Shown here in pieces: positions 1-20,509 of a DNA stretch of 21,779 bases. This DNA is from Craspedostauros australis (taxonomy: Eukaryota). Location: NCBI GenBank assembly GCA_030167865.1, contig JALAGF010003172.1:62001-83779 (forward strand), given 5' to 3'. Within the stretch, counting starts at the first letter, position 1. Every line of letters starts with the position of its first letter. Made by a program: the position numbers and the translations under genes. The notes below the pieces were generated by a model. It worked only from the letters and a program-made list of their open reading frames with translations, ran no database searches and had not been told where the DNA came from.

Positions 1-1638
1 CGTGATGTGATGTGATGTGAGTTTGTGGAAACGGTCGTCGTGTCCCCAACTTGATGGCTTTGTCACCATGAGCACATGAGCACATGACCTTTCTTTTCTC
101 GCACAAACAAACAAGCCCTTCTCCCACCTTCTATTCCATTGTCGTGCTTCGACGTGGGTGCTCCCCTGGTACCACACCAATAGCGCCAAAATGGAGAATC
201 GGAACAACCGCGCGGGTAATATTTGCGAATACTTGGCCCACGACAAGCGCCCCCCAGCCGGAACTTTTTATCGCACGCAAACACAACACAGAGAAGGTAG
301 GAATACAGCCAAGGTGGGTCGTGGCTACGGGTACCGAGATCAGTTCGAAAATGCGTCGCGTTCGATAATGATACCTTCGCTTCCCCTGAAGTACCGCATT
401 TCCACATTCGTTCTCTTCGCTCGTTTCGGAGCGCAACAACAGTCGCTTCCTTCGTCCTTGATCGTCTTCTTGCAGAGAGAGAGGCATTGTACTCCGCATG
501 GCAACAAACCTATCAATGTAAAAAAAATCCATGTCTTCGGCAAGTTTCGTCCAAGCTCTTGGCCACATCTATTATTATCGGAGGTACCGCTGCACATAAG
601 GATCGCACCATGTCTTGCAAATGAGAAGTAGCCCCATTGATGCGATATCAATCATGAACACGAGCGGATCAGACATCCCAACACAATGCTCCGCACCTGT
701 TCTCCATCCCTATCTCTTTCTTTCCGTGGAGTTCCTCAGTTGCCGCATCCAACATCAGTCACAGGAACAAAGAACTCCACACCTGTGAGTAAGCAAGACA
801 CACATGGCCTTGTGACACTGGAAAAGTGGAGTAAGTACTCGTGACGATCCTCTGTCCGTGTCGACGCTCGCAATTGCACACGCCTACGTCCACAACAACA
901 ATGCCGCGCACAGCAACCGCTTGCTCGAAACGGGTCAACGTTGCAGGTTCGTTCCAGCAGAAGATGACCACAAAGATCAACACGAATACCAGCGACGAGA
1001 CGGTAGCATCATGAATTGGAGCGACAGGGGGCTTTGTTCGCAGAAGTCTCCAATGAGCGAGGGTGCTCTCTGCAAATGCTGGTGTGGTGTCTTCGTTCGG
1101 AAGTTGCTGGCATGAACGAAGGAGCCTGCGTCCATGGGTACCGCAATCACATCGCAACCTTGTTCCTGTGAGTACCGAGTTGGAACCGTCAACGATACAG
1201 AGAGTTCTTTGTTGGGAGAACACGAAAGAAGTCGAACAACAACTCTACCTCCGTCAACCATTTTGGCGCTAGCTTAACCGTCAAGGCGGTTAATAACCGT
1301 TAACGCGCGTCGGTTTTCACTATGATCTGCTGGTGGATGTTGTCACAAAGTGCGCACCTTTCCGGTTTCATTTCAATTCGCACAATGCATCAGCAGCAAC
1401 AGCAACAGTAACAGTAACGCCGATGAAAGTGAGATGATGACAACAATGGTGCAAGTCGTGGTGATGATGATGGTGATGATCACGGTAGGCGCGAGCGGAC
1501 TGGGTTCAACGCATCCTGCGTTGCATCATCCAACGCAACATTTCTCGCCGCTCCATTTCTTCGACGACGCACACCACAGATTCACTTGCACCCGCATTCA
1601 CGTACACAGACACACATAGACTCTACGAGGACACAAAC

Positions 1639-3417: not shown

Positions 3418-4072
3418 TGCGACTGAGACGATGGCAGAACTATGTCGGTGTAGAGGAACAAATAGTGTTCGCAGTGAAGCAGGTGCAGAAATATAGAATA
3501 TGCACATAGTACTCATACATATAATAATATGTAATATGGTACATTGAGTAGCACTTCCATTGATGGATGCTTCTTCCAAGCTACCATCTCATCACAATGT
3601 GAGCGTGTTAGAGTATGATGGAGTAGAGCAGTTCGGCACAACATGAGCTTGGTGGGACTCGGTGATCAGGTCGCGTGCCGACTTGATGCCAGCAGAGTCG
3701 TGCCAACGAAGAGAGGAACAGAAGATTTCCTTCACGTTTTCGTTGTCATCACCCAACGGTCAAAAATGCTTTCTGGGCCATCGTCACAACCCTTCAGAAC
3801 GCAACGGACCCAAAGCTGATTGAGACCATTGCTACACACTCTCTCTCTGTCTCTCTCGCAACATCTCCGTGTTAACCGATCGCCGTCGCACCACTTCTGC
3901 TGTACTCTCTACCAATAGAGAGCGTCCGTACGAGTAGCTCGTTCGCTGGTGGTTGGCATCATCAGCATCATTCACATCAGCACCAGCACCAGCACCAGCA
4001 TTGGCATCATACGGAACAAGTCGATCAACCGATCGACCAAGGGTAACACTGACAACAGTAGCGACTGCAACA

Positions 4073-5905
4073 ATGACGGCAACAATGAGTCGGCACACAC
4101 CCCCACTGATTCTTCCATGGTTTCAGTTACTGCTGCTACTAGTGGACAACAAGGGCACAACAATGACAGTCGCAGCGGAATGCCACACCTACTTGGCTCC
4201 ATCCACGATCCCTGGCGCCGGCCTCGGGGTGTTCGCAGGCAGCAAGAGCTACAAGACAGGCGACAGAGTCACGTTGCCCGACGTCGTCATCCCTGTCATT
4301 GAACTGGATTGGCACAACAACTACACGAAGTACGAATTCCTATGGAAGGACTACGTCTGGTCCGGATCCAACTTTCATGACATGGAATTGGATTCCGAGG
4401 ATGGCTTCGAAGCCCTGAGTGCGGCATCCGGCGGGATGGGGGCGGCCACCAACTGTCATATATCCTTACACAATGTTCACGACACAAAGATCCAAATGGA
4501 TCAGGGCGATGTGCCGATGGACAGTCCAGGGCTGGGCGCATTCACGCCGTACCATGGGCGTGCCTTCCATGCCATCACCGAGATCCCGGCCGGGATGGAG
4601 CTCTTTTCGGATTACGGGTACGGCTACTTTCTAGCGCGTACTCGCACTTACGGCCCGATCCCCTTTGAGGATGATTACGTGCAAGCGGATGAATTGCTGA
4701 AGAACTTTTTGGAGTTGGAATCATCGCTGCAGATCGAGCAAGCCGTGGTCGAGGATCTGTACGACGCCATGATCCAGCTCAAGGGCGAGATCTTCTCGCG
4801 CACGCTGTCGGCGCTGCCCAGCAACAGGACGCAGATCGAGCCCGTCATGCATCAAGGTGGCACGGACATGCAGGATTTCAATCGCAGCATCCGCAGCATG
4901 GAATGGCTGGAGCAGCATGGGCAGTGCATGGACAACATCAAGCCTCAAAAGTCGACGTTGCCGCATGCGGGTCGCGGTGCCTTCGCGAATCGTTTCATCG
5001 CCGCGGGGACTCTCGTGGCGCCGGCACCGTTGATCCATATCCCTGACGGTTCCATCCTCAACATGTACTATCCGTTGCATGACGAAAACTTCGAGAAGGC
5101 CCATTTTGACGAAAAGGCCCGTGATAAGATACAACGGGATCCCAACAACCCTAAGCACCACCAGCTGCTCGTCAACTACTGCTTCGCGCATCACGAATCC
5201 ACGCTCCTCATGTGTCCCTACGGAATCCTCACGGCGTTGATCAACCATCACCAGGAGAAGGCCAACACCAAGATCGTGTGGAGCGCCAACAACCGGAATC
5301 CGGAATGGAGGGAGACGCCCATCGAGGTGTGGGGCAGCCAGCCCCAAAGCGGTCTGTCCTTCGACTATGTCGCCACGCGCGACATTGAGGAGGACGAAGA
5401 GATCTTTATCGACTACGGCGATGCCTGGGAGGCGGCATGGCAAGATCACGTCGCCGACTACTACGTCGACGGCCAACCACCGCGCCCGCACTTCATGCAG
5501 GCGGCGGATCGTAACACGCGCATGGACATTCCCATACGGTTGGTCACTGATCGGCCTTACGATTTGGACGACGTGCGCGTGACGGTCATCGGACATTACG
5601 TTGAATTCAACGGCGCGCAAGGATTCGATACCAACGAGGATTACGACTGCGATGTGCTGCATCACAACAAGGACAGGGACACGTACATGGTGCAGCTGAC
5701 CTATCCGTTGACCAACGAAGAGCAATGCGTGATCGATGTGTGGGATAAGGGCGGCCATATTCTGTTCGAGCTCCCGCGTCAGGCATTCTTCTTTTACGAC
5801 GTCCAGGCCTGCACGAGGGATCATGTGCAGCTGTGGTCCTTCCGGCATCCCATGATGATTCCCGATGAGATGCTTCCAGATATCTGGAGGAACAGAGTGC
5901 CGTGA
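4073..5905 (+). CDS. Secreted/ER-type protein with two SET-like methyltransferase domains (diatom-expanded family)
   Basis: SET motifs occur twice: YLAPSTIPGAGLGVFAG...NCH...EIPAGMELFSDYG and STLPHAGRGAFA...LINHH...ATRDIEEDEEIFIDYG. Hydrophobic signal-like segment LILPWFQLLLLLV. The ORF track starts at a TTG; the first in-frame ATGs are at 4073 and 4085. Confidence 0.88.
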   Translation: MTATMSRHTPPLILPWFQLLLLLVDNKGTTMTVAAECHTYLAPSTIPGAGLGVFAGSKSYKTGDRVTLPDVVIPVIELDWHNNYTKYEFLWKDYVWSGSNFHDMELDSEDGFEALSAASGGMGAATNCHISLHNVHDTKIQMDQGDVPMDSPGLGAFTPYHGRAFHAITEIPAGMELFSDYGYGYFLARTRTYGPIPFEDDYVQADELLKNFLELESSLQIEQAVVEDLYDAMIQLKGEIFSRTLSALPSNRTQIEPVMHQGGTDMQDFNRSIRSMEWLEQHGQCMDNIKPQKSTLPHAGRGAFANRFIAAGTLVAPAPLIHIPDGSILNMYYPLHDENFEKAHFDEKARDKIQRDPNNPKHHQLLVNYCFAHHESTLLMCPYGILTALINHHQEKANTKIVWSANNRNPEWRETPIEVWGSQPQSGLSFDYVATRDIEEDEEIFIDYGDAWEAAWQDHVADYYVDGQPPRPHFMQAADRNTRMDIPIRLVTDRPYDLDDVRVTVIGHYVEFNGAQGFDTNEDYDCDVLHHNKDRDTYMVQLTYPLTNEEQCVIDVWDKGGHILFELPRQAFFFYDVQACTRDHVQLWSFRHPMMIPDEMLPDIWRNRVP

Positions 5906-6691
5906 GGGCATGTTGGTCGAGCAGTTAGGCAGTGTCAGGATGGTCGCGAGTGTGTAAGGTTGAGAGCAAACGCATCCAGATTAGAGCGAGGTGATTACGC
6001 ATACATTCGCACAATTCTAGTGTAATAACGCATCATGCAATGGAACAATATAAACTAAATTCTTGCTTTCTATCCAATAATGGTACTCTCCAGAGAGGAA
6101 GTGTTGGTAACAGGTCGTCCATGCAGAAAGAGCCCAGAAGCGGAATTGAGGCTTGGGCAGATTGATTCGTGTTTCAACAAGTCACGATAGGTACGAGGGA
6201 TCCTTTGAGTCCCGTAAACGCACTCTCAATCACGATCCACATCAACGCGAACAACGGCTCCTCCGGAACGGTGTTGCAGATTCCGGAGGAGCCAGAGGAA
6301 TTGCAACAGGTTGCAGTGTCCAGACACAACACAAGAGAAGGAAGATGGCTGTTAGGTTCCTCTCCTTTTGATGGGATAGTGCTTTGATGCAGATGCCCAA
6401 CAAAGGCGATCGAGTGCTGGTTGAGAGGCGATGGCATCAATGGAGATGACAATCTCCGGCGTTTCTGTTTCGTCGCTCAGGAATTGCGCTTCTGCGTGTG
6501 CTCCGCTCACACTCACAATGACAACTTGATGGGATGAAGAGGCGTCAAGATACAAGAGCACCGTGTCACATGTGATGACAACGCTCCTGTCCACCCGCAC
6601 ATACGAGCACAAACGAGTCGAGGAGAGAGTATTATACGAAGTTACTGGGACAGCTATTAGCCATAGCTCGTACTCAACGAATACAAACATC

Positions 6692-8699
6692 ATGCACAGC
6701 TACGGCAGCACCAACGCGCCCAACGATGACAGCCCTGCGCATTCGGATCGCGACTATCTGTTCCACGCCAGCTCCAGCATGGAGACTTATGGCGACGACG
6801 ACGTGCCGTCCGTCGGCAGAAGCGTGTCGCTGAGTCGTTTCGGGTACCCTTCGAGTCTGCGCATCCAGCACGACCTGCGAACAGCATCCACAGTCGGTGC
6901 GCTCCTCGTCTTCCTGCTGCTCGTGCTGGGCTTCGTGCAGCATAACAGCAGCAACGGTGATGTTACGAATGTGGACCAACCGGATCTGCTCCCCATATGG
7001 ACGCCGTTGCTGCGAGAGGCCATGCCACGAGCAGATTCAGTTGAAAAGCACTACGAACATCAGCTTGTGGACCATTTTGCTGCAGACCAGACTGAGCACA
7101 CCGCCGTGTTTTCGCAACGGTACTACGAATCCGAGCGTTTCTTCCAAGGTCCTGGGCATCCATTCCTCGTCATTGTTGGTGGACAGCATTCCAATGACAA
7201 AGGGCTGAGCATTCCCTTCGTGGCGGAATATCTGGCCAGCATCCTCAACGCCTACGTTCTGCAACCAGAGCATCGGTTCTATGGAAAATCCTGGCCGGTC
7301 CAGCATGTGTCACAGCAAGACGTCCACTCCAGCGACATCAACAAAGACATTGACAGCGATGGCAGTAATGATTTTCCGTCTTCGGATCGGCTAAGGCAGC
7401 TTCAAAGCCCTCATCAGACAATGGCGGACCTTGCTCAGATCGTTCAGCACATGCAGGAAGAGCATGGCTGCAGCCTCGATCCATCCAGCAAAGACTACTG
7501 CCCCGTCATTGCCGTGGGCGGTGGCATGTCGGGAGTGCTTGCTACCATGATGCGGTTGACGTATCCGAACGTTGTGGACATCGCTTACGCGTCATCCGCA
7601 CCGTTAAAACTACATACACATTATGTAAACACGCATGCGTACTTTGAAAAGATCACGCAAGTGGCAGAATCGGCGTCGTCCGGATGCTCCAATGCCGTCC
7701 ATCAGACGCTGCTGGACATCTCGGGTGCGCTTCGCGTCAACGACGACCAAGAGCCAAACTATGTCGATCTCTCTTCGAGGTTGGGCATCTGCGCTGACAC
7801 CATGCCATCACATATCCAATCATCCGTCGTGTTCCAGCAAGAGTTGGTCATGAATATCGCAAATAGGTTTGCAAAATGCAACATGGAGTACTACCCACCA
7901 GGTCCAGAGACGTCTCTTGTGGCAGCGTGCAATATCTTTCAAGATTCTACGATGTCGGCGGAAGGCAAGATCGCGTCCTACCTCATGGCCCCGAACGGCG
8001 ATGAGAGTCAGTGCTTCGATTTGTCATCGTTCGTGCGATCTAGACCGCATTCCACCTTGTCCGCAGACAACCATGAAGAGATCGGGCGCGGTCTTTCCCA
8101 AGACATTTGGGACTTGCAGGTACGTTGATCGATGGGTCATTCGGCTCTTGTCTGCCCCACTTACATGGCAACGATCTCCGTCATTCTCACACTTGATTTC
8201 CTCTTTGTTTTTTCTTGAACCTGTCACGACTCCCCTTATCTACGTGCTGCTCAATGCCACTATGCTCTCGCATTCTGCTGTTTGCCCCGCGAAGATATGC
8301 GACCTGCTCACGAATCCAGCGACGGTGACAGACGCTTCCATGTTCCCTGTGCAAGAATACAGCGACGAGTGGCTGGACCAGCACTGCCATTCCCGATCTG
8401 ACTCTGCATCGCACATCCAAGATCTGATGCATGACATCGGCGTAGATGACTTGGCGCAGCTCAGCACAACCAGGATGCTTGTCGTCAATGGCATGAACGA
8501 TGGGTGGTCCATGGCGTCGCAGTTGGAAACGCAGGTTGATTTGCGCGTGGTCAACATCCCAAGCGGCGCGCATCATAGCGAATTGTCACAAACGGGGCCG
8601 TTCGAGAATGACACATTGGACATGCAGGGGGCGTACACTCAGATTGCGCGACATTTACTCGATCTCGTGCGCGTGGCGATGGCAGAACGCAGTGTGTAG
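6692..8699 (+). CDS. Peptidase S28 (prolylcarboxypeptidase/DPP-II-like) homologue, membrane-anchored; exons 6692-8119 and 8295-8699 (~610 aa)
   Basis: S28 motifs QLVDHF, FSQRYY, EHRFYGKS, ADLA, YPNVVDIAYASSAP, NGMNDGW, GAHHSEL. N-terminal TM segment. Splicing joins WDLQ to ICDLL in frame. Confidence 0.85.
8120..8294 (+). other. Spliceosomal intron (175 nt) in the S28 gene
   Basis: CAG|GTACGT donor, pyrimidine-rich body, AAG|ATA acceptor. Removal restores the frame between the two S28-like ORFs. The exact acceptor is inferred. Confidence 0.7.
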
Positions 8700-9028
8700 C
8701 ATGATGTTCGATGATTGTTTCTGCAGGGAGCGGAAACAGAAGCTGGTGTTGGGAGAATAATTAAAGTACAGCACAGCACAGCACAGTACGAAAGAGAAGA
8801 GCAGTGTTCATGCGTGAGTAGACACAGTTCATAACGAACGACGACCACTTAATCCTTGCGGCAAGCCGATTTACTCTATGTTGCTCAAAGAGTGTGGTGG
8901 CGATAGGTCCCTCGCCTGAAGCTGGGCCTGCGGAAGCGCCAGCATCAAGAGGAAACCAGAATTGGGCAAAAACAGAGAAATGGGACGAAAAGATGAGCAA
9001 AAAGGGCTGATTCCTGCTCTTTTGGAGT

Positions 9029-9033
9029 AAAAA
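9029..9033 (-). terminator. RNA polymerase III terminator (T5)
   Basis: TTTTT 4 nt after the 5' half of the permuted tRNA on the minus strand. Confidence 0.65.
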
Positions 9034-9037
9034 GAGT

Positions 9038-9115
9038 CTGCAATCGAACGCTCTACCACTGAGCTATACTGACCTAGAGAGTCAACAACGTGAGTCGAAC
9101 ACGTGACCATTCGAA
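9038..9115 (-). tRNA. trnC-GCA: Circularly permuted tRNA-Cys(GCA): 3' half 9115-9080, linker CTCTAG, 5' half 9073-9038
   Basis: The halves reassemble into a full cloverleaf: acceptor GTCAGTA/TGTTGAC, D-arm GCTC/GAGC, anticodon stem TTCGA/TCGAA with GCA (9041-9039), T-arm ACGTG-TTCGACT-CACGT, and U73 discriminator (Cys identity). Confidence 0.88.
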
Positions 9116-9146
9116 TACTGCTTCGCTGACGTGCTGAGCGAAAAAC

Positions 9147-9153
9147 ATATTTA
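9147..9153 (-). promoter_or_regulatory. TATA-like element upstream of the permuted tRNA
   Basis: TAAATAT begins 38 nt upstream of the 3' half. A similarly placed AT-rich box lies at the other copy. Confidence 0.4.
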
Positions 9154-9349
9154 TGAACTCTTGAATTGGTGCTGCTGCACAACAACAAATCTTCATTTGT
9201 TCTGCCCCAACCCAACAGGCATTCCCGATCCACCCATCCACCCACCACACATGCTCATTCAGTGGCAGCCAGCACACTTCACAAAGAGAGCGCGAGGGAA
9301 CTCAACAGCAGCATCCAATAGCATCCATGATGAAAGCAACAAAGATTGC

Positions 9350-10129
9350 ATGAGCAACAACTTTCCTGTGGCCAATGCAACTGCAGTGATCGATGATAGC
9401 AACGATGACGCTGAGATGGCCGACGTGAGACACATGAACAACAGCAAACGGTTCGAGACCGCCAGCTGCAGAATGGTGCAACAGACGCACGGGGTCGCAT
9501 CCCTACGACGCATTCCGAATGCATCTGTCAGACCGTACGATGAAGAGGGAATGGATTCTACAGATTCTGCGGAGAACGAGAATGCACCAGGTCGTGGCAC
9601 CATCACGGTGATCCCTGGGGCCGATCTAGCTGTTTGAGGCAACAGCAACAACGTGAATCCCGATGGCTCCCCCATCGCAATCCAGGAGGCGATTGGAGAT
9701 GCCGATATTTCAACGAGGAGCGTGAGAACGACCAAGGCCAACTGGGAGGCAACATTCGGCGTGTTCATCGTCATGGTGGCTCTGACCACCTTTTCGACGA
9801 TGATGATATTGGACTATGAAGAGCCTCCTCACGACAGGTTTTCGTTCAGTAATTCGAACAATGGCGATGTGTGGACTCCTCCAATCCCACCACCGACGCT
9901 TTCATCTTGCGATGGATTTTCCTTCGCTTGGTTCGACCATGAAGCGACAGATGCGCTGCGAGCTTCGGTTGACGGAAGCTTCGGAATAAGCGACACAAGC
10001 AGCAAAAACATGTGCCTCGAACAATGCAAGTTGTTAGAGCGAGGGTTAGTGGGCCACTTCTTCGTGTCCACGAAGCCTGACTTCTGGAAAGGTGACCGGG
10101 ATTGCATGCGCTATCCAAACCCTTTGTGA
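9350..10129 (+). pseudogene. Single-pass membrane protein with Cys-containing ectodomain, interrupted by in-frame TGA (9635-9637)
   Basis: ORFs 9131-9637 and 9653-10129 are in the same frame. Read-through gives a low-complexity N-terminus, IPGADLAV*G, a TM segment (FGVFIVMVALTTFSTMMIL), a Pro-rich linker and a CLEQC-containing domain. The 3' end is uncertain (possible GTGAGT donor near 10126). Confidence 0.5.
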
Positions 10130-10927
10130 GTTTGTCTCGAAAGGGCCCCTCTCATGACGACAGGAAGTGGCACCATTCGATCAAAGATTCGCATCCTGAC
10201 CGATGGTTGCCTGTAGCACGGCGACCATCGAGCAGCTGGTGTGCTCAACGAGTATTCTCCTCTACGATCGCTCTGTTGCTTTGATGAAATACATATGCGA
10301 CGATCAATTGACTAGGACTCGTATGCACATTCATGAGTATTGCGGTGTATTCTCCGAATTTGCGCGCTCGCCAACTGGGATACGTGAGCTTGGCTCAAGT
10401 GAGAACGTCCAGTGTGAGCAATAAGCACAGGCTGGCGTCAATCAACTTGGCTTGAGGGATCCCTGCCCATGTGCTCAGCCCGGCCACAAAGTCCAGGAGA
10501 CATGAGGACCATCCAACGCTCCGCGCATCACATTGAAATTCGTGGTGCCGACCCCGATGGCTGATGGCTTCCAAATGACCTCAATCACCCTCGTCTGCGT
10601 TCAGCAAGCACGTCAACTGCGAAAAGAATGAGTACCGCGATATTAGTATGCATGTTCTTGCGACGCTTACAATCAAGTTGGACAATCCAATCAAGTTAGA
10701 TGGCATGTGGCAACCACTCGATCGCACCTGGGAGTTCCTCGAGCCCGTGAGGAGCACCGTGCATTCATTGAAACCCAAACTATGATGGGCCAGCAATCAG
10801 GTACACGGTCTCGGCATTTCATCGTAGAATGTCTGTGAAGAAGGCAATAGCACACATGTGATACAATGTAAATGGATACAATGTAAATGGATACGATCTA
10901 TGGTATGGCATGGTATAATCTGGAACT

Positions 10928-12910
10928 TCACTCCTCTTCTTCAGCAGAGCTGTCCGTCTCAATCGCTTTGGATGATTTGGTACTCATTGAGCGGACGAAG
11001 TCCACCAATGTCGCCCAATCCATGTATGAATCCACGTTTGCTGTACTCTCATCCTCATCTTTAACCTTGTGCAGCTTCATCATGGACATGTGACTGTACT
11101 CATCATCAATACCATCACTCTCCGCTCCCCCACTGCGGAGGACATGAATGCCTCCCATCAGTTGGGGTTGTAGAATCAGCTTGCTGAAATCTGGATGAGC
11201 GAACATATCTTTCTCACTTTCAGCTGCCATTCTCATTGCTGCATCCTTCAACACCACGCAGTTGTGTTGATGGGCGAATATCAATGCATCTATCATGATG
11301 TCCTCTGTGAGATGCTTGCGGGCCAACTCTGCTTCAAGAACAAGCTTGAGCCGCCAGAAGCCGAATTCGTTGGCCACAAGGATCAGCTGTTGCAGATCGT
11401 GCCGTCTATTGAGGGCGGGAGTTGGCTGGTGAGAGGCATCTGCATCGCGGTGAGCGTCGACAATAGCGCCGATGTGAGCAGCAGTGTTGTCACGAGCGCT
11501 GTCATCAAATGATATCTCACCTGTGTAGATGCATTGGGGGACGTATCGGACGTGTTTTGGTTGAAGGTTGGGAAGAGGGATGGTTGTTTGGATGGGTTCA
11601 GTTCTATCTTGAGCGCCATCGTGAGCGCATTGATGTTGGATTCCTTTGTCGATCAGCGTCTCAATGGATGGGACGGTGATCATGAGGACTCCGGAGTTTG
11701 CCTTGATTGGTTGCTGTTCGTCGTCCTGTCCACACAAGAAGATGGTGTCTGTCCTGTTCCCAGTTTAGAAGGATTTGAGTCGGTCTTCTCCAATGCTGGC
11801 GTTGGTCCTCTTGTGGCTGCTGTGTTTGTGTTCATTCTCTTGGCTCTTTCGCTTCAACTGGTGTCTCGACTGTTGTTGCAAATGTTCAATCTCTTGTTCC
11901 TTCAGCTTCAACTGCTGTCCCAACTGTTGTTTCAGTTGTTCATTCTCTTGTTCCTTCTGTTTCAACTGCTGCCGCAGTTGTGAGTTGCGATAACTCAGAT
12001 CATCGAGACGGTTTATCATCTTGATATTAAATGTTGCATCGACCAAATCGAGGGGCGTTTTGTTGTCGTTGTTTTTGATGTCGATATTAGCATTGGCTGA
12101 TGCAATGAGGTACTCGACACACTCCAGCGTGTTGTTGTTGCATGCACAATGAAGGGGAGTGGAACCATTGTTGTTTTGACAGTTCACTTTCGCCTCACAT
12201 GAATCGATGAGGTACTCCACACTCCTCAGCTGGCCACACAAGCATGTGTGATGAAGGGGAGTGTCACCAGAGTTGTCTTTGCAGTTGATGTCCGCCCCAC
12301 ATAATTCGATGAGGTACTTCACACACTCCAGGCGGCCGTTCCAGCATGTGTGATGAAGGGGAGTGCAACCGTCGTTGTTTTGGCAGTTGATGTTTGCCCC
12401 ACATGATTTGATGAGGTACTTCACACACTCCAGGCAGCCTTCCATGCATGCCCGATGAAGGGGAGTGTTTCCATTGTTATCTTCACAGTTGATATTCGCC
12501 CCACAGGATTCGATGAGGTACTTCGCACAATCCAGGTGGTCATGGTGGCATGCCGTCTGAAGGGGGGCATCACCATAGTAGTTTTGGCAGTTGATGTTCG
12601 CCTCACATGATTCGATGAGGTACTTGACACACTCCAGGTGGCCGTTGTCGCATGCCAGATGAAGGGGAGTGTCACCATGGTTGTTTTGGTAGTTGATGTT
12701 CGCCTCACATGATTCGATGAGGTACTTGACACACTCCAGGTGGCCGTTGTGGCATGCCAGACGAAGGGGAGTGCGACCAACCCAGTCTGTAACCTTGTTG
12801 ACATCAACTCTCTCAGTCTGCGTCTTGTTCTGCTTCTTCCATTCCTTCAACACCGACAAGTCACCTGCATTGGCAGCAGCAATGAGTTGTTCATTCGTAA
12901 CATTCGGCAT
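10928..12910 (-). pseudogene. Ankyrin-repeat / coiled-coil / BTB-POZ protein split by one in-frame TAA (11767-11765)
   Basis: ORFs 12910-11765 and 11737-10928 are in frame. Read-through LKSF*TGNRTDTIFLCG..PIKANSGVL starts a BTB fold, followed by LILVANEFGFWRLKLVLEAEL and ALIFAHQHNCVVLKDAAM (BTB/BACK-like). The Gln/Glu/Lys-rich segment is coiled-coil-like. Confidence 0.8.
12071..12784 (-). repeat. Seven tandem 102-bp (34-aa) ankyrin repeats
   Basis: Consensus GxTPLHxACxNGHLECVKYLIESCxANINCxNN. The units are visibly similar at DNA level. Confidence 0.92.
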
Positions 12911-13255
12911 TTCGAGAGGATGGACGATTGACGTTGGATGATTGGTCTTGGGTTGGCTCTCGTAGAAATGTGTGAAGTCTGAGCTCCCTATGGCAGATGT
13001 ATTGATCGCGTATCTGCCCTATCTTGTATTAGTATGAGTGCCACACACTGTGTGATGAATAGTACTATGAGTGGCAATTCGATGTCTGTTGTTGATGTGT
13101 GCGAGTATGGGGTTGAGTGGTGTGTGTTGTTGTCTTGTTGTCTTGTTGGCGTGATCTTCTCTTTCTCTCTTTTGCGCGAAACCATCTTCAAGTTTGTCTG
13201 TGACTGTTTCGTGGGCAGAGAGGTCAACTTTTTCCTAGTGCACCATACATGACAG

Positions 13256-13261
13256 TATTTA
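13256..13261 (+). promoter_or_regulatory. TATA-like element upstream of the permuted tRNA
   Basis: TATTTA begins 42 nt upstream of the 3' half. Confidence 0.4.
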
Positions 13262-13297
13262 GACCGTATTCTGCGTTATGTGGGTAGCACAGCAGTA

Positions 13298-13375
13298 TTC
13301 GAATGGTCACGTGTTCGACTCACGTTGTTGACTCCACGGGTCAATATAGCTCAGTGGTAGAGCGTTCGATTGCAG
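13298..13375 (+). tRNA. trnC-GCA: Circularly permuted tRNA-Cys(GCA): 3' half 13298-13333, linker CCACGG, 5' half 13340-13375
   Basis: Reassembled: GTCAATA TA GCTC AGTGGTA GAGC G TTCGA TTGCAG|T TCGAA TGGTC ACGTG TTCGACT CACGT TGTTGAC T. All four stems pair, the anticodon GCA is at 13372-13374, and U73 is present. The B box precedes the A box. Confidence 0.9.
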
Positions 13376-13379
13376 ATTC

Positions 13380-13384
13380 TTTTT
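13380..13384 (+). terminator. RNA polymerase III terminator (T5)
   Basis: TTTTT 4 nt after G37 of the 5' half; further T-runs follow. Confidence 0.65.
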
Positions 13385-13856
13385 ACACCAAAAGAGCAGG
13401 AATCAGTCCTTTTTGCCCATCTTTTCGTCCCATTTCTCTGGTTCTGCTCGATCCAGGCTTCATTTTGCTACTTCCAAGCAGCAATGGCAACAGCAGGAAC
13501 CGCCACAACATCGGTAATGGTGATGTCTCTTCCGCAATCGGCGCTGATGGGCCATTCTCCCCAGATGCACCACACACAAGTGGAGATGAGGATGAACCTG
13601 GCGTCCGGATCAGCAATAGTAACGAAATCTTGTGCTGAAACTCTTAACCAATCTCATGTTTGCAGCTTCGTCGATGAGAGGTGATTCATCGTGAAGTGTT
13701 GGTACTTGGGAGCGCCAAGAGATGGATTCGCTGTCGACTATAATATTATTGTTTAGAATGGCGACTTTCCGTCAATGGCTCACAGTATGTATTTGTATGG
13801 AGTAGGCGCGTGTCCTGTCAAAATTGTTCACAACCTTCATTCCGTTCTTCCCCCGA

Positions 13857-17598: not shown

Positions 17599-18537
17599 TG
17601 TTGGAATGTGCATATGTGTATGTGCATCGCTCACCCATTGTTCTCTTACTCTATGCTCAAACAGCGCACACGTTGGTGCCATGAATGAAGCGTGACTGAG
17701 TGAGATCACATTCTGAGTTTACGTGCACCAAATTGTTCTCGATTTTGGAAGGAAATTGTTGGCGAGTTCCGTAGATGGGTACCTTGCAATCGTGGAAGAC
17801 GGTGATGGTTGTTACGATTCTGATTGCTATTTCATTACGTTGGTACTCCAATCCTCTCGGTGTCACCGTTCTCTTGCCTGATGCTCTCAGCGCGTTTCTC
17901 TGTTTTGTAGATTGAGTCTCCGACTATGAGTCGGTACGTGAGATGCTCTCTTGCTATTATTCGTATTCTCTCTCTTCTCAATGTAGCATGTTCGTGCTAC
18001 ATGACACTCCGTGTTCGATGCGTACTCTGCATTCGACACTTCGTTCATTTATTACTGGCTTCTACTGCATGAGTACTTACCACTTGAACTCCTCTTCATG
18101 TATCCATGATCTCTATGCCCTTGGGTCATCGAATCTTTACCTTCTGCTTCTGACATGGAGACAGATGTCAACGTGGTGACATGATGACATCCTGTCAACA
18201 TCAGCTGTCGTCTTTCTGCTCTCCAGATGTCACATTCCATTGATGATGCGATGGTCTGTCAGATGATATTGTCATCTGGGGTTTAGTTGGGAGGTACATC
18301 GAGCTTCGCTCGATACCATACGTTTCCATTGATGGATGGACGGACGATATTCCTGATTCTCTCAGAAATCGTTGATTGCAAATTTCCTCCAGAAATTCTG
18401 CTCATTTTTGTGTGTTCCATTTCCACTGTGATTCTGACAAATCACAGCATACTAACCACACGAGTGTAGTTTTACCGTCCGTGCATGTATAAGAGAATAA
18501 CGGGTGAACGATGCACATGTACACGTACATCTTGACA
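17599..18537. mobile_element. Non-coding element with long imperfect terminal inverted repeats and TGT...ACA ends (element A)
   Basis: Left end TGTTGGAATGTGCATATGTGTATGTGCATCGCTCACCCATTGTTCTCTTA aligns with the reverse complement of the right end, TGTCAAGATGTACGTGTACATGTGCATCGTTCACCCGTTATTCTCTTA. Flanks CACACT/TATACT may be a decayed 6-bp TSD. Confidence 0.62.
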
Positions 18538-19792: not shown

Positions 19793-19915
19793 AAACAGTG
19801 AGAGAGCATCTTGTGTACCAACTCATAGTCAGGAGACATCAGGCCAACAGGAGACCCCCAAAACCATTGGAACAAAAAAATGAAATAGCAAACAGAATCG
19901 AAACCACCTCCACCA

Positions 19916-20509
19916 TTATCTACAGTGCAAGGAATATCCATGAGCAGAGCTTGCCAACATCACCAACTGCAGCTCCAAGGAAGCCCCATCATTGTTGGGA
20001 ATAGCCAAAGCACATGGAAGGTCTTGGCCACTGGAAAATAGTGCTTGCGCCACAGTGTGCCCCACAGTTCTGGTGTCAATTGCACAGCTGCTGTTCGTGT
20101 CAAACTTGAATGGACCGTCGTGGTACACGATGAGCTCCAGCACCAAGCTGGAGTCCCTCTTGTTGAAGGCGCGAGTGGCAATAACTGACGACACCAGCTG
20201 GTTGCGGCCCAGGTTGTCTTCACCTTGTGCATTGAAGAATGGCCTTGCTGCCATCTTTGTGTTGTTGTTGGTGTTGATCATGGTGAACAACATGAAGCTG
20301 TAGATGGAGCACTTGTAATCGTTCGCAGATGATATTCTCGTGGGTACTTGCTTCGTGGTGGATGCCTCAACGTCCACTGCTTGCGCAAATGGCCACGAAC
20401 TGTGTCGATGCGGAGCACGTGGCTCCTCATCCGTGAGCAACATCACCGCGATCACGGCGATTGTGCAGGCAAATCTTCGCATCGCCATCGTCAACTTCTT
20501 CATCAGCAT
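19916..20509 (-). pseudogene. Possible decayed or truncated gene for a secreted protein
   Basis: Signal-like MRRFACTIAVIAVMLL followed by protein-like sequence (FFNAQGEDNLGRNQLVSSVIAT, LVLELIVYHDGPF). The 3' end runs into repeat B. No family recognised. Confidence 0.3.

Follow-up and report, generated by a model that had tools for sequence, protein, structure and literature searches.

Can a cysteine transfer RNA (tRNA-Cys) be encoded in a diatom-type genome with its 3' half upstream of its 5' half, and does a second, inverted copy of such a gene reveal whether both are under selection? This question is raised by a locus at positions 9029–9122 (minus strand) of a stretch of 21,779 nucleotides (nt) from Craspedostauros australis (contig JALAGF010003172.1), which as a whole is referred to here as the window. 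At this locus, termed copy 2, a leader is followed by nt 38–73 of the tRNA, a linker, nt 1–37 and a trailer with a run of five thymines (T5). The same permuted order occurs on the plus strand at 13291–13384 (copy 1). It is likely that the two loci represent functional nuclear genes in circularly permuted form, of type II (junction between nt 37 and 38), for a cytosolic tRNA-Cys(GCA) in a diatom-type genome, and this judgement includes the processing pathway and the duplication history proposed below. That the gene pair as such is real and functional is very probable. The decisive support for the putative function is provided by comparative data on relatives of these genes, not by the comparison of the two copies in the window.

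Architecture and relatives of the permuted genes

When the halves were joined by a script, ARAGORN called a 72-nt tRNA-Cys(GCA) with four paired stems and U73 for both copies, which confirms that the second permuted copy, proposed in a preliminary description of the locus, is real. All 21 stem pairs of the cloverleaf (21/21) are intact in each copy. Each half matches twice within the window, at an expectation of 0 in 100 shuffles, and chance is therefore excluded. Neither locus is an ordinary, unpermuted tRNA gene, i.e. a collinear cloverleaf seen by tRNA finders: in genomic order, ARAGORN reported 0 tRNA genes in the window, Rfam gave no tRNA match there at the gathering threshold, and the Rfam tRNA model reached only 16.3 and 21.1 bits (gathering score 29), in the regions of the 5' halves only. 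The linkers of both copies comprise 6 nt and contain no T-run. The coordinates of all parts are compiled in Table 1.

The linker of copy 1 starts with CCA straight after U73 (13334–13336), and this trinucleotide is absent from the linker of copy 2 and from those of 17/17 relatives described below. An interpretation as an encoded CCA end was dropped; with 0/17 relatives possessing it, the trinucleotide is probably due to chance.

Table 1. Coordinates of the permuted tRNA-Cys copies, their putative signals and flanks, and of tRNA genes upstream of permuted relatives (positions in the window unless a metagenomic contig, L, is named)
Feature	Position	Strand	Remarks
Copy 2, leader AGCAGTA, 7 nt	9116..9122	-	no difference from copy 1 (0/7)
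Copy 2, 3' half, nt 38–73, 36 nt	9080..9115	-	anticodon-stem 3' strand, variable loop, T-arm, acceptor 3' strand, discriminator U73; same in both copies
Copy 2, linker CTCTAG, 6 nt	9074..9079	-	4/6 positions unlike CCACGG of copy 1
Copy 2, 5' half, nt 1–37, 36 nt	9038..9073	-	acceptor 5' strand with G5, D-arm, anticodon-stem 5' strand, U32 U33 G34 C35 A36 G37; anticodon GCA
Copy 2, trailer ACTC and T5 run	9029..9037	-	predicted 5' cut site after G37; putative RNA polymerase III terminator
Copy 2, AT-rich TATA-like box ATAAATAT	9147..9154	-	-39..-32 from nt 38; putative upstream promoter element
Copy 2, downstream part of the duplicated unit (+10..+97)	8941..9028	-	near-identical to +65 (8973), then decaying; no known function
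Copy 1, leader	13291..13297	+	
Copy 1, 3' half	13298..13333	+	
Copy 1, linker CCACGG	13334..13339	+	
Copy 1, 5' half	13340..13375	+	
Copy 1, trailer ATTC and T5	13376..13384	+	
Copy 1, TATA-like box TATTTA	13256..13261	+	-42..-37
Copy 1, downstream part of the duplicated unit	13385..13472	+	
Upstream tRNA-Ala(UGC)	L123:1585–1656	-	
Upstream tRNA-Ala(UGC)	L128:579–650 and 1411–1482	-	
Upstream tRNA-Ala(UGC)	L131:101–172	-	
Upstream tRNA-Ala(UGC)	L142:1589–1660	-	
Upstream tRNA-Ala(UGC)	L150:135–206	-	
Upstream tRNA-Ala, then tRNA-Leu(CAA)	L134:1–156	+	

When matches with E values up to 10 were considered, Rfam yielded sub-threshold YrlA and tRNA matches plus noise at both loci, and nothing else. 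YrlA (RF02553) is a bacterial and phage Y-RNA-like tRNA mimic, and the matches to it extend over the full length of the model (scores of 30.2 and 33.7 bits; E values of 9e-5 and 8e-6). The loci might thus encode such a mimic instead of a tRNA. However, these scores are less than half of the gathering score of 69, and the matches are explained by the order of T-arm, acceptor and D-arm which YrlA and the permuted genes have in common. In contrast to YrlA, the loci in the window possess a complete anticodon arm with GCA, tRNA-Cys identity elements including U73 and a putative RNA polymerase III terminator, and they reside in a eukaryotic genome. An identity as YrlA is effectively refuted and retains next to no probability.

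Relatives of the two copies were sought with a pattern consisting of the T-loop, 11 free bases, U73, 10–40 free bases, the D-arm, 7 free bases and UGCA. It yielded 33 matches in 31 metagenome loci, as well as 2 loci in viral contigs. Intact permuted tRNA-Cys genes are present at 22 of the metagenome loci (24 matches); they possess 6–7/7 acceptor pairs across the linker and 5/5 anticodon-stem pairs between the halves, and ARAGORN called tRNA-Cys on the joined halves. After removal of duplicates, 19 distinct permuted genes remained, 17 of which have the tRNA body of the window copies. These 17 metagenomic relatives and the two window copies formed the alignment of 19 sequences used in the following; two permuted genes with divergent bodies were left out, namely L138, which is GC-rich, and L151, which has a linker of 26 nt and is identical to L153. 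Beyond the tRNA, no synteny between the window and any relative locus was detected by blastn or tblastx.

Several candidates were rejected. Six loci (L124, L146–L149 and L152) are ordinary tRNA-Cys genes inside tRNA arrays, L126 is the same contig as one of the viral matches, and neither of the two loci in viral contigs is a permuted tRNA-Cys. A generic pattern of the permuted topology, applied to viral contigs, matched more than 120 tandem tRNA pairs and was uninformative. The viral and metagenome collections also contain contigs of about 276 kb (L121, L122 and L126) on which T-arm, acceptor and D-arm occur in permuted order with 6–7/7 acceptor pairs and no matching anticodon stem (3/5 pairs). 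This element may be a Y-RNA-like tRNA mimic of a large virus.

In the alignment, 98.7% of 475 cells of the permuted cloverleaf are paired, in comparison to 90.7% in shuffled alignments, 0/500 of which reached the observed value, and to 22–44% with slid partners. Eleven pairs change on both sides, namely 7/7 acceptor pairs across the linker, two anticodon-stem pairs joining the halves and two pairs of the T-stem. The free columns of the tRNA body vary little (0.065/site in the 3' body and 0.090/site in the 5' body), and the variation amounts to 0.70/site in the leader (-14..-7), 0.62/site in the trailer and 0.59 per site among the 6-nt linkers. In 10/17 relatives, including one on a centric-diatom-type contig, the free body positions are the same as those in the window.

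The preliminary description had also assumed that the linker is constrained only in length. This assumption is contradicted by the family, as the 19 linkers comprise 5, 5, 6 (six times), 7, 7, 8, 9, 9, 10, 10, 12, 12, 12 and 21 nt, and linkers of 6, 7, 9 and 10 nt occur among relatives with an identical acceptor stem. The linkers are short, and their length is not fixed.

Permuted copies can probably decay. At L130 (identical to L144; 1340–1596, minus strand), two tandem permuted tRNA-Cys-like copies are located about 150 nt apart, the first with a broken T-stem and the second with an altered D-arm, and both are probable pseudogenes. The copies in the window could likewise be non-functional relics, i.e. 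halves left over from decayed tandem tRNA-Cys genes or tRNA-derived repeats, from which no tRNA is expressed. Yet both window copies retain every stem pair, G37 and the leader motif as well as the AT box and the T-run seen in the family, their free body positions recur in 10/17 relatives as described above, and all seven acceptor pairs show compensatory changes across the linker. This explanation is therefore considered highly improbable.

The occurrence of more than one copy is not peculiar to the window, since L128 and L131 each carry, on one short contig, two identical units of tRNA-Ala and permuted tRNA-Cys as a direct repeat (832 and 1164 nt apart, respectively).

Junction and putative signals for processing and transcription

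All sequences (19/19) have G as nt 37 and U as nt 38, two positions which the search pattern left free. The base preceding U38 (-1) is variable (A 8, C 5, T 3, G 3; n=19). The invariance of G37 and U38 next to a position that accepts any base places the junction at 37/38. Further upstream, the leader is conserved again (-6, G in 18; -5, C in 16 and U in 3; -4, A in 17; -3, A in 11 and G in 6 of the 19 sequences), and positions -6..-3 (GCAR) pair with C35, G34, U33 and U32 in 94.7% of the cells, where only one-sided variation is possible, as the loop side is invariant. In copy 2, GCAG can pair with U32 U33 G34 C35, and U(-2), A(-1) and U38 would make up the bulge with the 3' cut site. The resulting helix of 4 bp adjoins the anticodon stem. 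It is flanked by two bulges of 3 nt each, N(-2) N(-1) U38 and A36 G37 N(+1), and the predicted cut sites fall after the second base of each bulge. The modelled precursor termini fit a relaxed bulge-helix-bulge, as described for 37/38 junctions in the review by Soma (2014, PMC3978253). Such a motif would account for the identity of exactly 7 nt of leader in the two window copies.

Both window copies possess an AT-rich box upstream of nt 38 ([AT]6 with its first base within -45..-30, and 37–42 nt upstream in these two copies), and so do 7/11 of the relatives that are not preceded by a tRNA. The tRNA genes of Phaeodactylum tricornutum in general have been described as having AT-rich DNA at -30 to -40 (PMC3531208). 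Downstream, both window copies have T5 at +5..+9, and in 19/19 family members a T-run of four or more residues starts within +1..+14.

A different arrangement was observed in 6/17 relatives. Here the permuted tRNA-Cys is preceded on its own strand by an ordinary tRNA-Ala(UGC) gene, or on L134 by tRNA-Ala and tRNA-Leu(CAA), with 6–10 nt from the end of the preceding gene to nt 38 (Table 1). The AT box is found in 0/5 of those tRNA-Ala-preceded relatives for which the full 70 nt of upstream sequence are available. This spacing suggests a co-transcription from the internal promoter of the upstream gene, which is not applicable to the window copies: ARAGORN detected no upstream tRNA in the window, and the AT-rich box is in place. 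In a further relative, L133, the upstream DNA resembles the decayed 3' end of such an upstream tRNA.

Based on these signals, RNA polymerase III would be positioned by the AT-rich box about 40 nt upstream and would start approximately 7–12 nt before nt 38. The transcript, with the 6-nt linker between the 3' half and the 5' half, would end at T5, 4 nt after G37. The halves would fold as a cloverleaf with an acceptor stem closed by the linker, and GCAG of the leader would pair with U32–C35. The tRNA splicing endonuclease would then cut A(-1)|U38 and G37|A(+1), and a ligase would join G37 to U38, which would yield a circular RNA. Finally, RNase P and tRNase Z would remove the linker before CCA is added. 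The participation of these enzymes and the formation of a circular intermediate are inferred by analogy to Cyanidioschyzon merolae and green algae, as outlined in PMC3978253.

Divergence between the copies and possible history of the duplication

Both copies are part of a 187-nt inverted repeat (8941–9127 versus 13286–13472; 88% identity, 4158 nt apart). As stated in the preliminary description and confirmed in register, the tRNA differs at 1/72 positions (0/36 in the 3' half and 1/36 in the 5' half), namely at nt 5, where G in copy 2 and A in copy 1 both pair with U68. The linkers differ at 4/6 positions at equal length, and 3/4 of these changes are transitions. Differences are absent from the leader and are found at 2/5 positions of the segment -12..-8 and at 1/4 positions of the trailer before the T-run. 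Further upstream, 32/48 positions differ between -60 and -13, which corresponds to the random level and agrees with the statement that this DNA cannot be aligned beyond the leader. The implied divergence of all DNA outside the tRNA proved wrong downstream, where differences occur at 0/5 positions of the T-run, at merely 3/56 positions between +10 and +65 and at 11/30 positions between +66 and +95, before the random level is reached further out.

The downstream element matched no Rfam family, and its folds were not significant (z=0.17 and -1.2 versus shuffles). It is shared with none of the 17 metagenomic relatives, in which the likeness to the window stops at the T-run. A hairpin of 7 bp (CTCTTTT/AAAAGAG) is found at 9017–9036 (minus strand) and 13377–13396 (plus strand), with the T-run as its 5' arm. 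A C-to-T difference in copy 1 leaves a G-U pair, and a second difference is located in the loop.

The two copies might be the result of a recent and neutral duplication. In this case, the near-identity of the tRNA would merely reflect the youth of the duplication, the linker would have been changed in a single complex multi-nucleotide event, and the pair would be silent on selection. The low divergence of the downstream flank (4/65, or 3/56 past the T-run) is consistent with this, and that of the tRNA is not significantly lower: 1/72 versus 4/65 in the untranscribed downstream flank gave p=0.19 (Fisher), and 1/79 for tRNA plus leader versus 3/56 past the T-run gave p=0.31. The flank comparison alone thus gives no sign of selection. 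A lineage-specific acceptor stem which is common to both copies points in the same direction; used as a search pattern, it gave 0 matches among the metagenome contigs scanned. However, four of six linker differences without a change in length have a probability of 1.9e-4 at the flank rate, and the outer leader and the trailer are raised as well. The linker is the real outlier of the window pair. Moreover, the family data independently show a constraint on the tRNA, and a recent neutral duplication, which we consider improbable, would therefore concern only the argument within the window and not the function of the genes.

According to the opposite explanation, the duplicates are old. The linker and the upstream DNA would then be saturated, tRNA and leader would be kept by selection, and the 65-nt downstream element would be functional itself (e.g. 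as backup terminators or as a processing or binding site) or gene-converted. The linker and the upstream region are indeed close to saturation at the low downstream divergence given above, the three T-runs of the downstream element are present in both copies, and the hairpin over the first T-run stays paired through the C-to-U change. On the other hand, the element occurs in 0/17 relatives and lacks an Rfam match and a significant fold, a conversion into the flank would require homology on its far side, and a conversion tract over the tRNA would have homogenised the linker as well. An old duplication is rather unlikely.

The preferred explanation is an inverted duplication of 187 nt with a background divergence of about 5%, after which the tRNA and the 7-nt leader would have been kept by purifying selection, and linker, outer leader and trailer would have diverged about nine times faster through transcription-associated mutagenesis. 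If leader positions -12..-8, the linker and the trailer before the T-run (15 sites) are taken together as transcribed and unconstrained, a split which is post hoc and assumes the start site, 7/15 of them differ in comparison to 3/56 positions of the flank past the terminator (p=4e-4; 8.7-fold ratio) and to 1/79 positions of tRNA plus leader (p=5e-6). A mutation excess of 7- to 10-fold at active tRNA loci was estimated from comparable sites by Thornlow et al. (2018, PMC6130373). Transcription-associated mutagenesis as the cause of the excess is the least secure part of this explanation.

Besides the post hoc nature of the split and the flank comparison (p=0.19 and 0.31), further points weigh against the interpretation favoured here. 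The divergence of 37% at +66..+95 is left unexplained by the mutagenesis model, and the same applies to the end of the homology at -12, although the AT box lies at a similar distance in both copies. The outer helix of a strict bulge-helix-bulge is paired in 42% of the cells and not conserved. Minimum free energy (MFE) folds of the precursors are no better than those of shuffles (z = +0.46 to -1.47) and favour a slightly shifted leader register. In the family alignment, U73 and nt 8–25, 33–36, 53–58 and 60–61 were fixed by the search pattern, and the invariance of these columns, including the D-stem, is given by construction.

The evidence for selection in the window pair depends on the choice of neutral sites. 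The earlier view that both copies are functional and under purifying selection is supported by the covariation and the low body divergence in the family, but not by the flank comparison in the window. A comparison of rates over more copies, as had been proposed, separates the free body columns (0.07–0.09/site) clearly from linkers and flanks, while the downstream flank of the window pair is not distinct from the tRNA.

Host, significance and comparison with known systems

A diatom-type nuclear origin of the window and not a prasinophyte origin is indicated by its protein matches, in combination with a G+C content of about 50% and long, intron-poor open reading frames (ORFs). The SET-domain ORF at 3953–5905 has 254 relatives at E values up to 0.001; among the 120 matches listed, all named ones belong to raphid pennate diatoms (Nitzschia, Cylindrotheca, Pseudo-nitzschia, Mayamaea, Epithemia) or to a metagenome-assembled genome of the Bacillariaceae, with a best E value of 4e-153 and up to 45% identity over about 90% of the query. 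The named relatives of the S28-peptidase ORF are diatoms only (up to 41% identity), and the U-box protein of the window gave a weak match in the protein search. With regard to the relatives, the ORF adjoining the permuted gene on L123 encodes mitochondrial EF-Ts, the named relatives of which are all centric diatoms (47–56% identity), and a protein search with a flanking ORF of L136 gave no information.

The serine carboxypeptidase S28 gene (6530–8696) is split over two frames (6530–8125 and 7854–8696), which implies an intron or a frameshift. A contig from a sequencing run, identical to the window and covering 8700–8852, ends at 8852. The 4.16-kb segment between the inverted 187-nt repeats (9128–13285) contains an ankyrin and BTB-like gene as well as ORFs without assignment, and could change its orientation through recombination of these repeats. 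Six tandem repeats of 102 nt (12037–12846) represent the ankyrin repeats of the ORF at 11768–13018 (minus strand), and the adjoining ORF at 10931–11764 (minus strand) showed weak BTB/BACK matches. A second inverted repeat of 45 nt (17792–17836 versus 19879–19923; 80% complementary) lies in a part of the window with a lower GC content.

Type II permuted tRNA-Cys genes in the diatom lineage would represent a new lineage for a known kind of gene, which appears to be widespread there. As permuted genes are missed by standard finders (ARAGORN and Rfam in this study), diatom genomes annotated in this way would seem to be devoid of tRNA-Cys. Intact, duplicated and conserved permuted genes across diatom-type contigs would add a major and ecologically dominant algal lineage, in which, if these genes are functional, the splicing endonuclease and the ligase would circularise a pre-tRNA. 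The transcription and processing of permuted genes would become testable in a genetically tractable group, and the family provides natural experiments for this purpose: linkers of 5–21 nt, stand-alone genes versus genes behind tRNA-Ala, and A5/G5 as a mark of the two window loci.

A more far-reaching idea, which is possible but to which we attach less than even confidence, is that in diatoms as a whole, pennate and centric, the sole source of cytosolic tRNA-Cys is a permuted gene older than the diatom radiation. This gene would ancestrally have been located downstream in a tRNA-Ala(UGC)–tRNA-Cys unit, in which tRNA-Ala supplied the internal promoter for RNA polymerase III, and stand-alone copies would later have come to depend on AT-rich boxes. 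If true, the stramenopiles would gain permuted tRNA genes, and there would be a concrete answer to the question of how these are transcribed; the arrangement behind tRNA-Ala, judged by its spacing only, would be an elegant way to provide permuted genes with the internal promoter that they lack. It would also have to be asked whether the 37/38 permutation of tRNA-Cys(GCA) in diatoms and prasinophytes arose by convergence or was obtained from an algal endosymbiont.

Closely spaced, co-transcribed pairs of tRNA genes exist, for example tRNA-Arg and tRNA-Asp in yeast. The gap of 6–10 nt between tRNA-Ala and the permuted tRNA-Cys in 6/17 relatives is typical of such dicistronic units, from which the window copies differ in that no tRNA precedes them.

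The reviews consulted, which extend to 2026 (PMC3978253, PMC4033280, PMC13578239, PMC3673656, PMC12633428), confine permuted tRNA genes to red and green algae, nucleomorphs of chlorarachniophytes, one crenarchaeon and a prasinovirus. Full-text literature searches, in which subscription papers are covered to a limited extent, gave no report of permuted tRNA genes from diatoms or other stramenopiles.

According to PMC3978253, experimental proof of the circular intermediate and of aminoacylation exists for one system only, the red alga C. merolae. Its genes resemble those in the window in their architecture, in the TATA-like box upstream, the T-stretch downstream and the bulge-helix-bulge, which is a prediction for the precursor termini in the window, and also in the proposed order of processing (PMC3978253). 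They differ in that no tRNA-Cys is among the permuted genes given in Table 1 of that review, several junction positions occur and the linkers comprise 7–74 nt.

The closest counterparts are the permuted type II genes for tRNA-Cys(GCA) which are tabulated for Ostreococcus lucimarinus, Ostreococcus tauri and Micromonas pusilla (Soma 2014, PMC3978253, Table 1, after Maruyama et al. 2010). The hosts of these prasinophyte genes are green algae in contrast to a diatom (stramenopile) in this case, tRNA body and acceptor stem differ, and their linkers comprise 26, 38 and 12 nt versus 6 nt in the window and 5–21 nt in its relatives. Two inverted copies, as present in the window, likewise set it apart from the prasinophyte genes. 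The linker of the Ostreococcus-like contig L151 has the length listed for O. lucimarinus (26 nt), and a pairing of a GCAR leader with nt 32–35 is not evident there. Both groups of genes nevertheless agree in the isoacceptor, in the type II junction at 37/38 and in the location of the 3' half upstream of the 5' half on one strand, as well as in the T-stretch after the 5' half, the AT-rich region upstream and the circular intermediate inferred for both.

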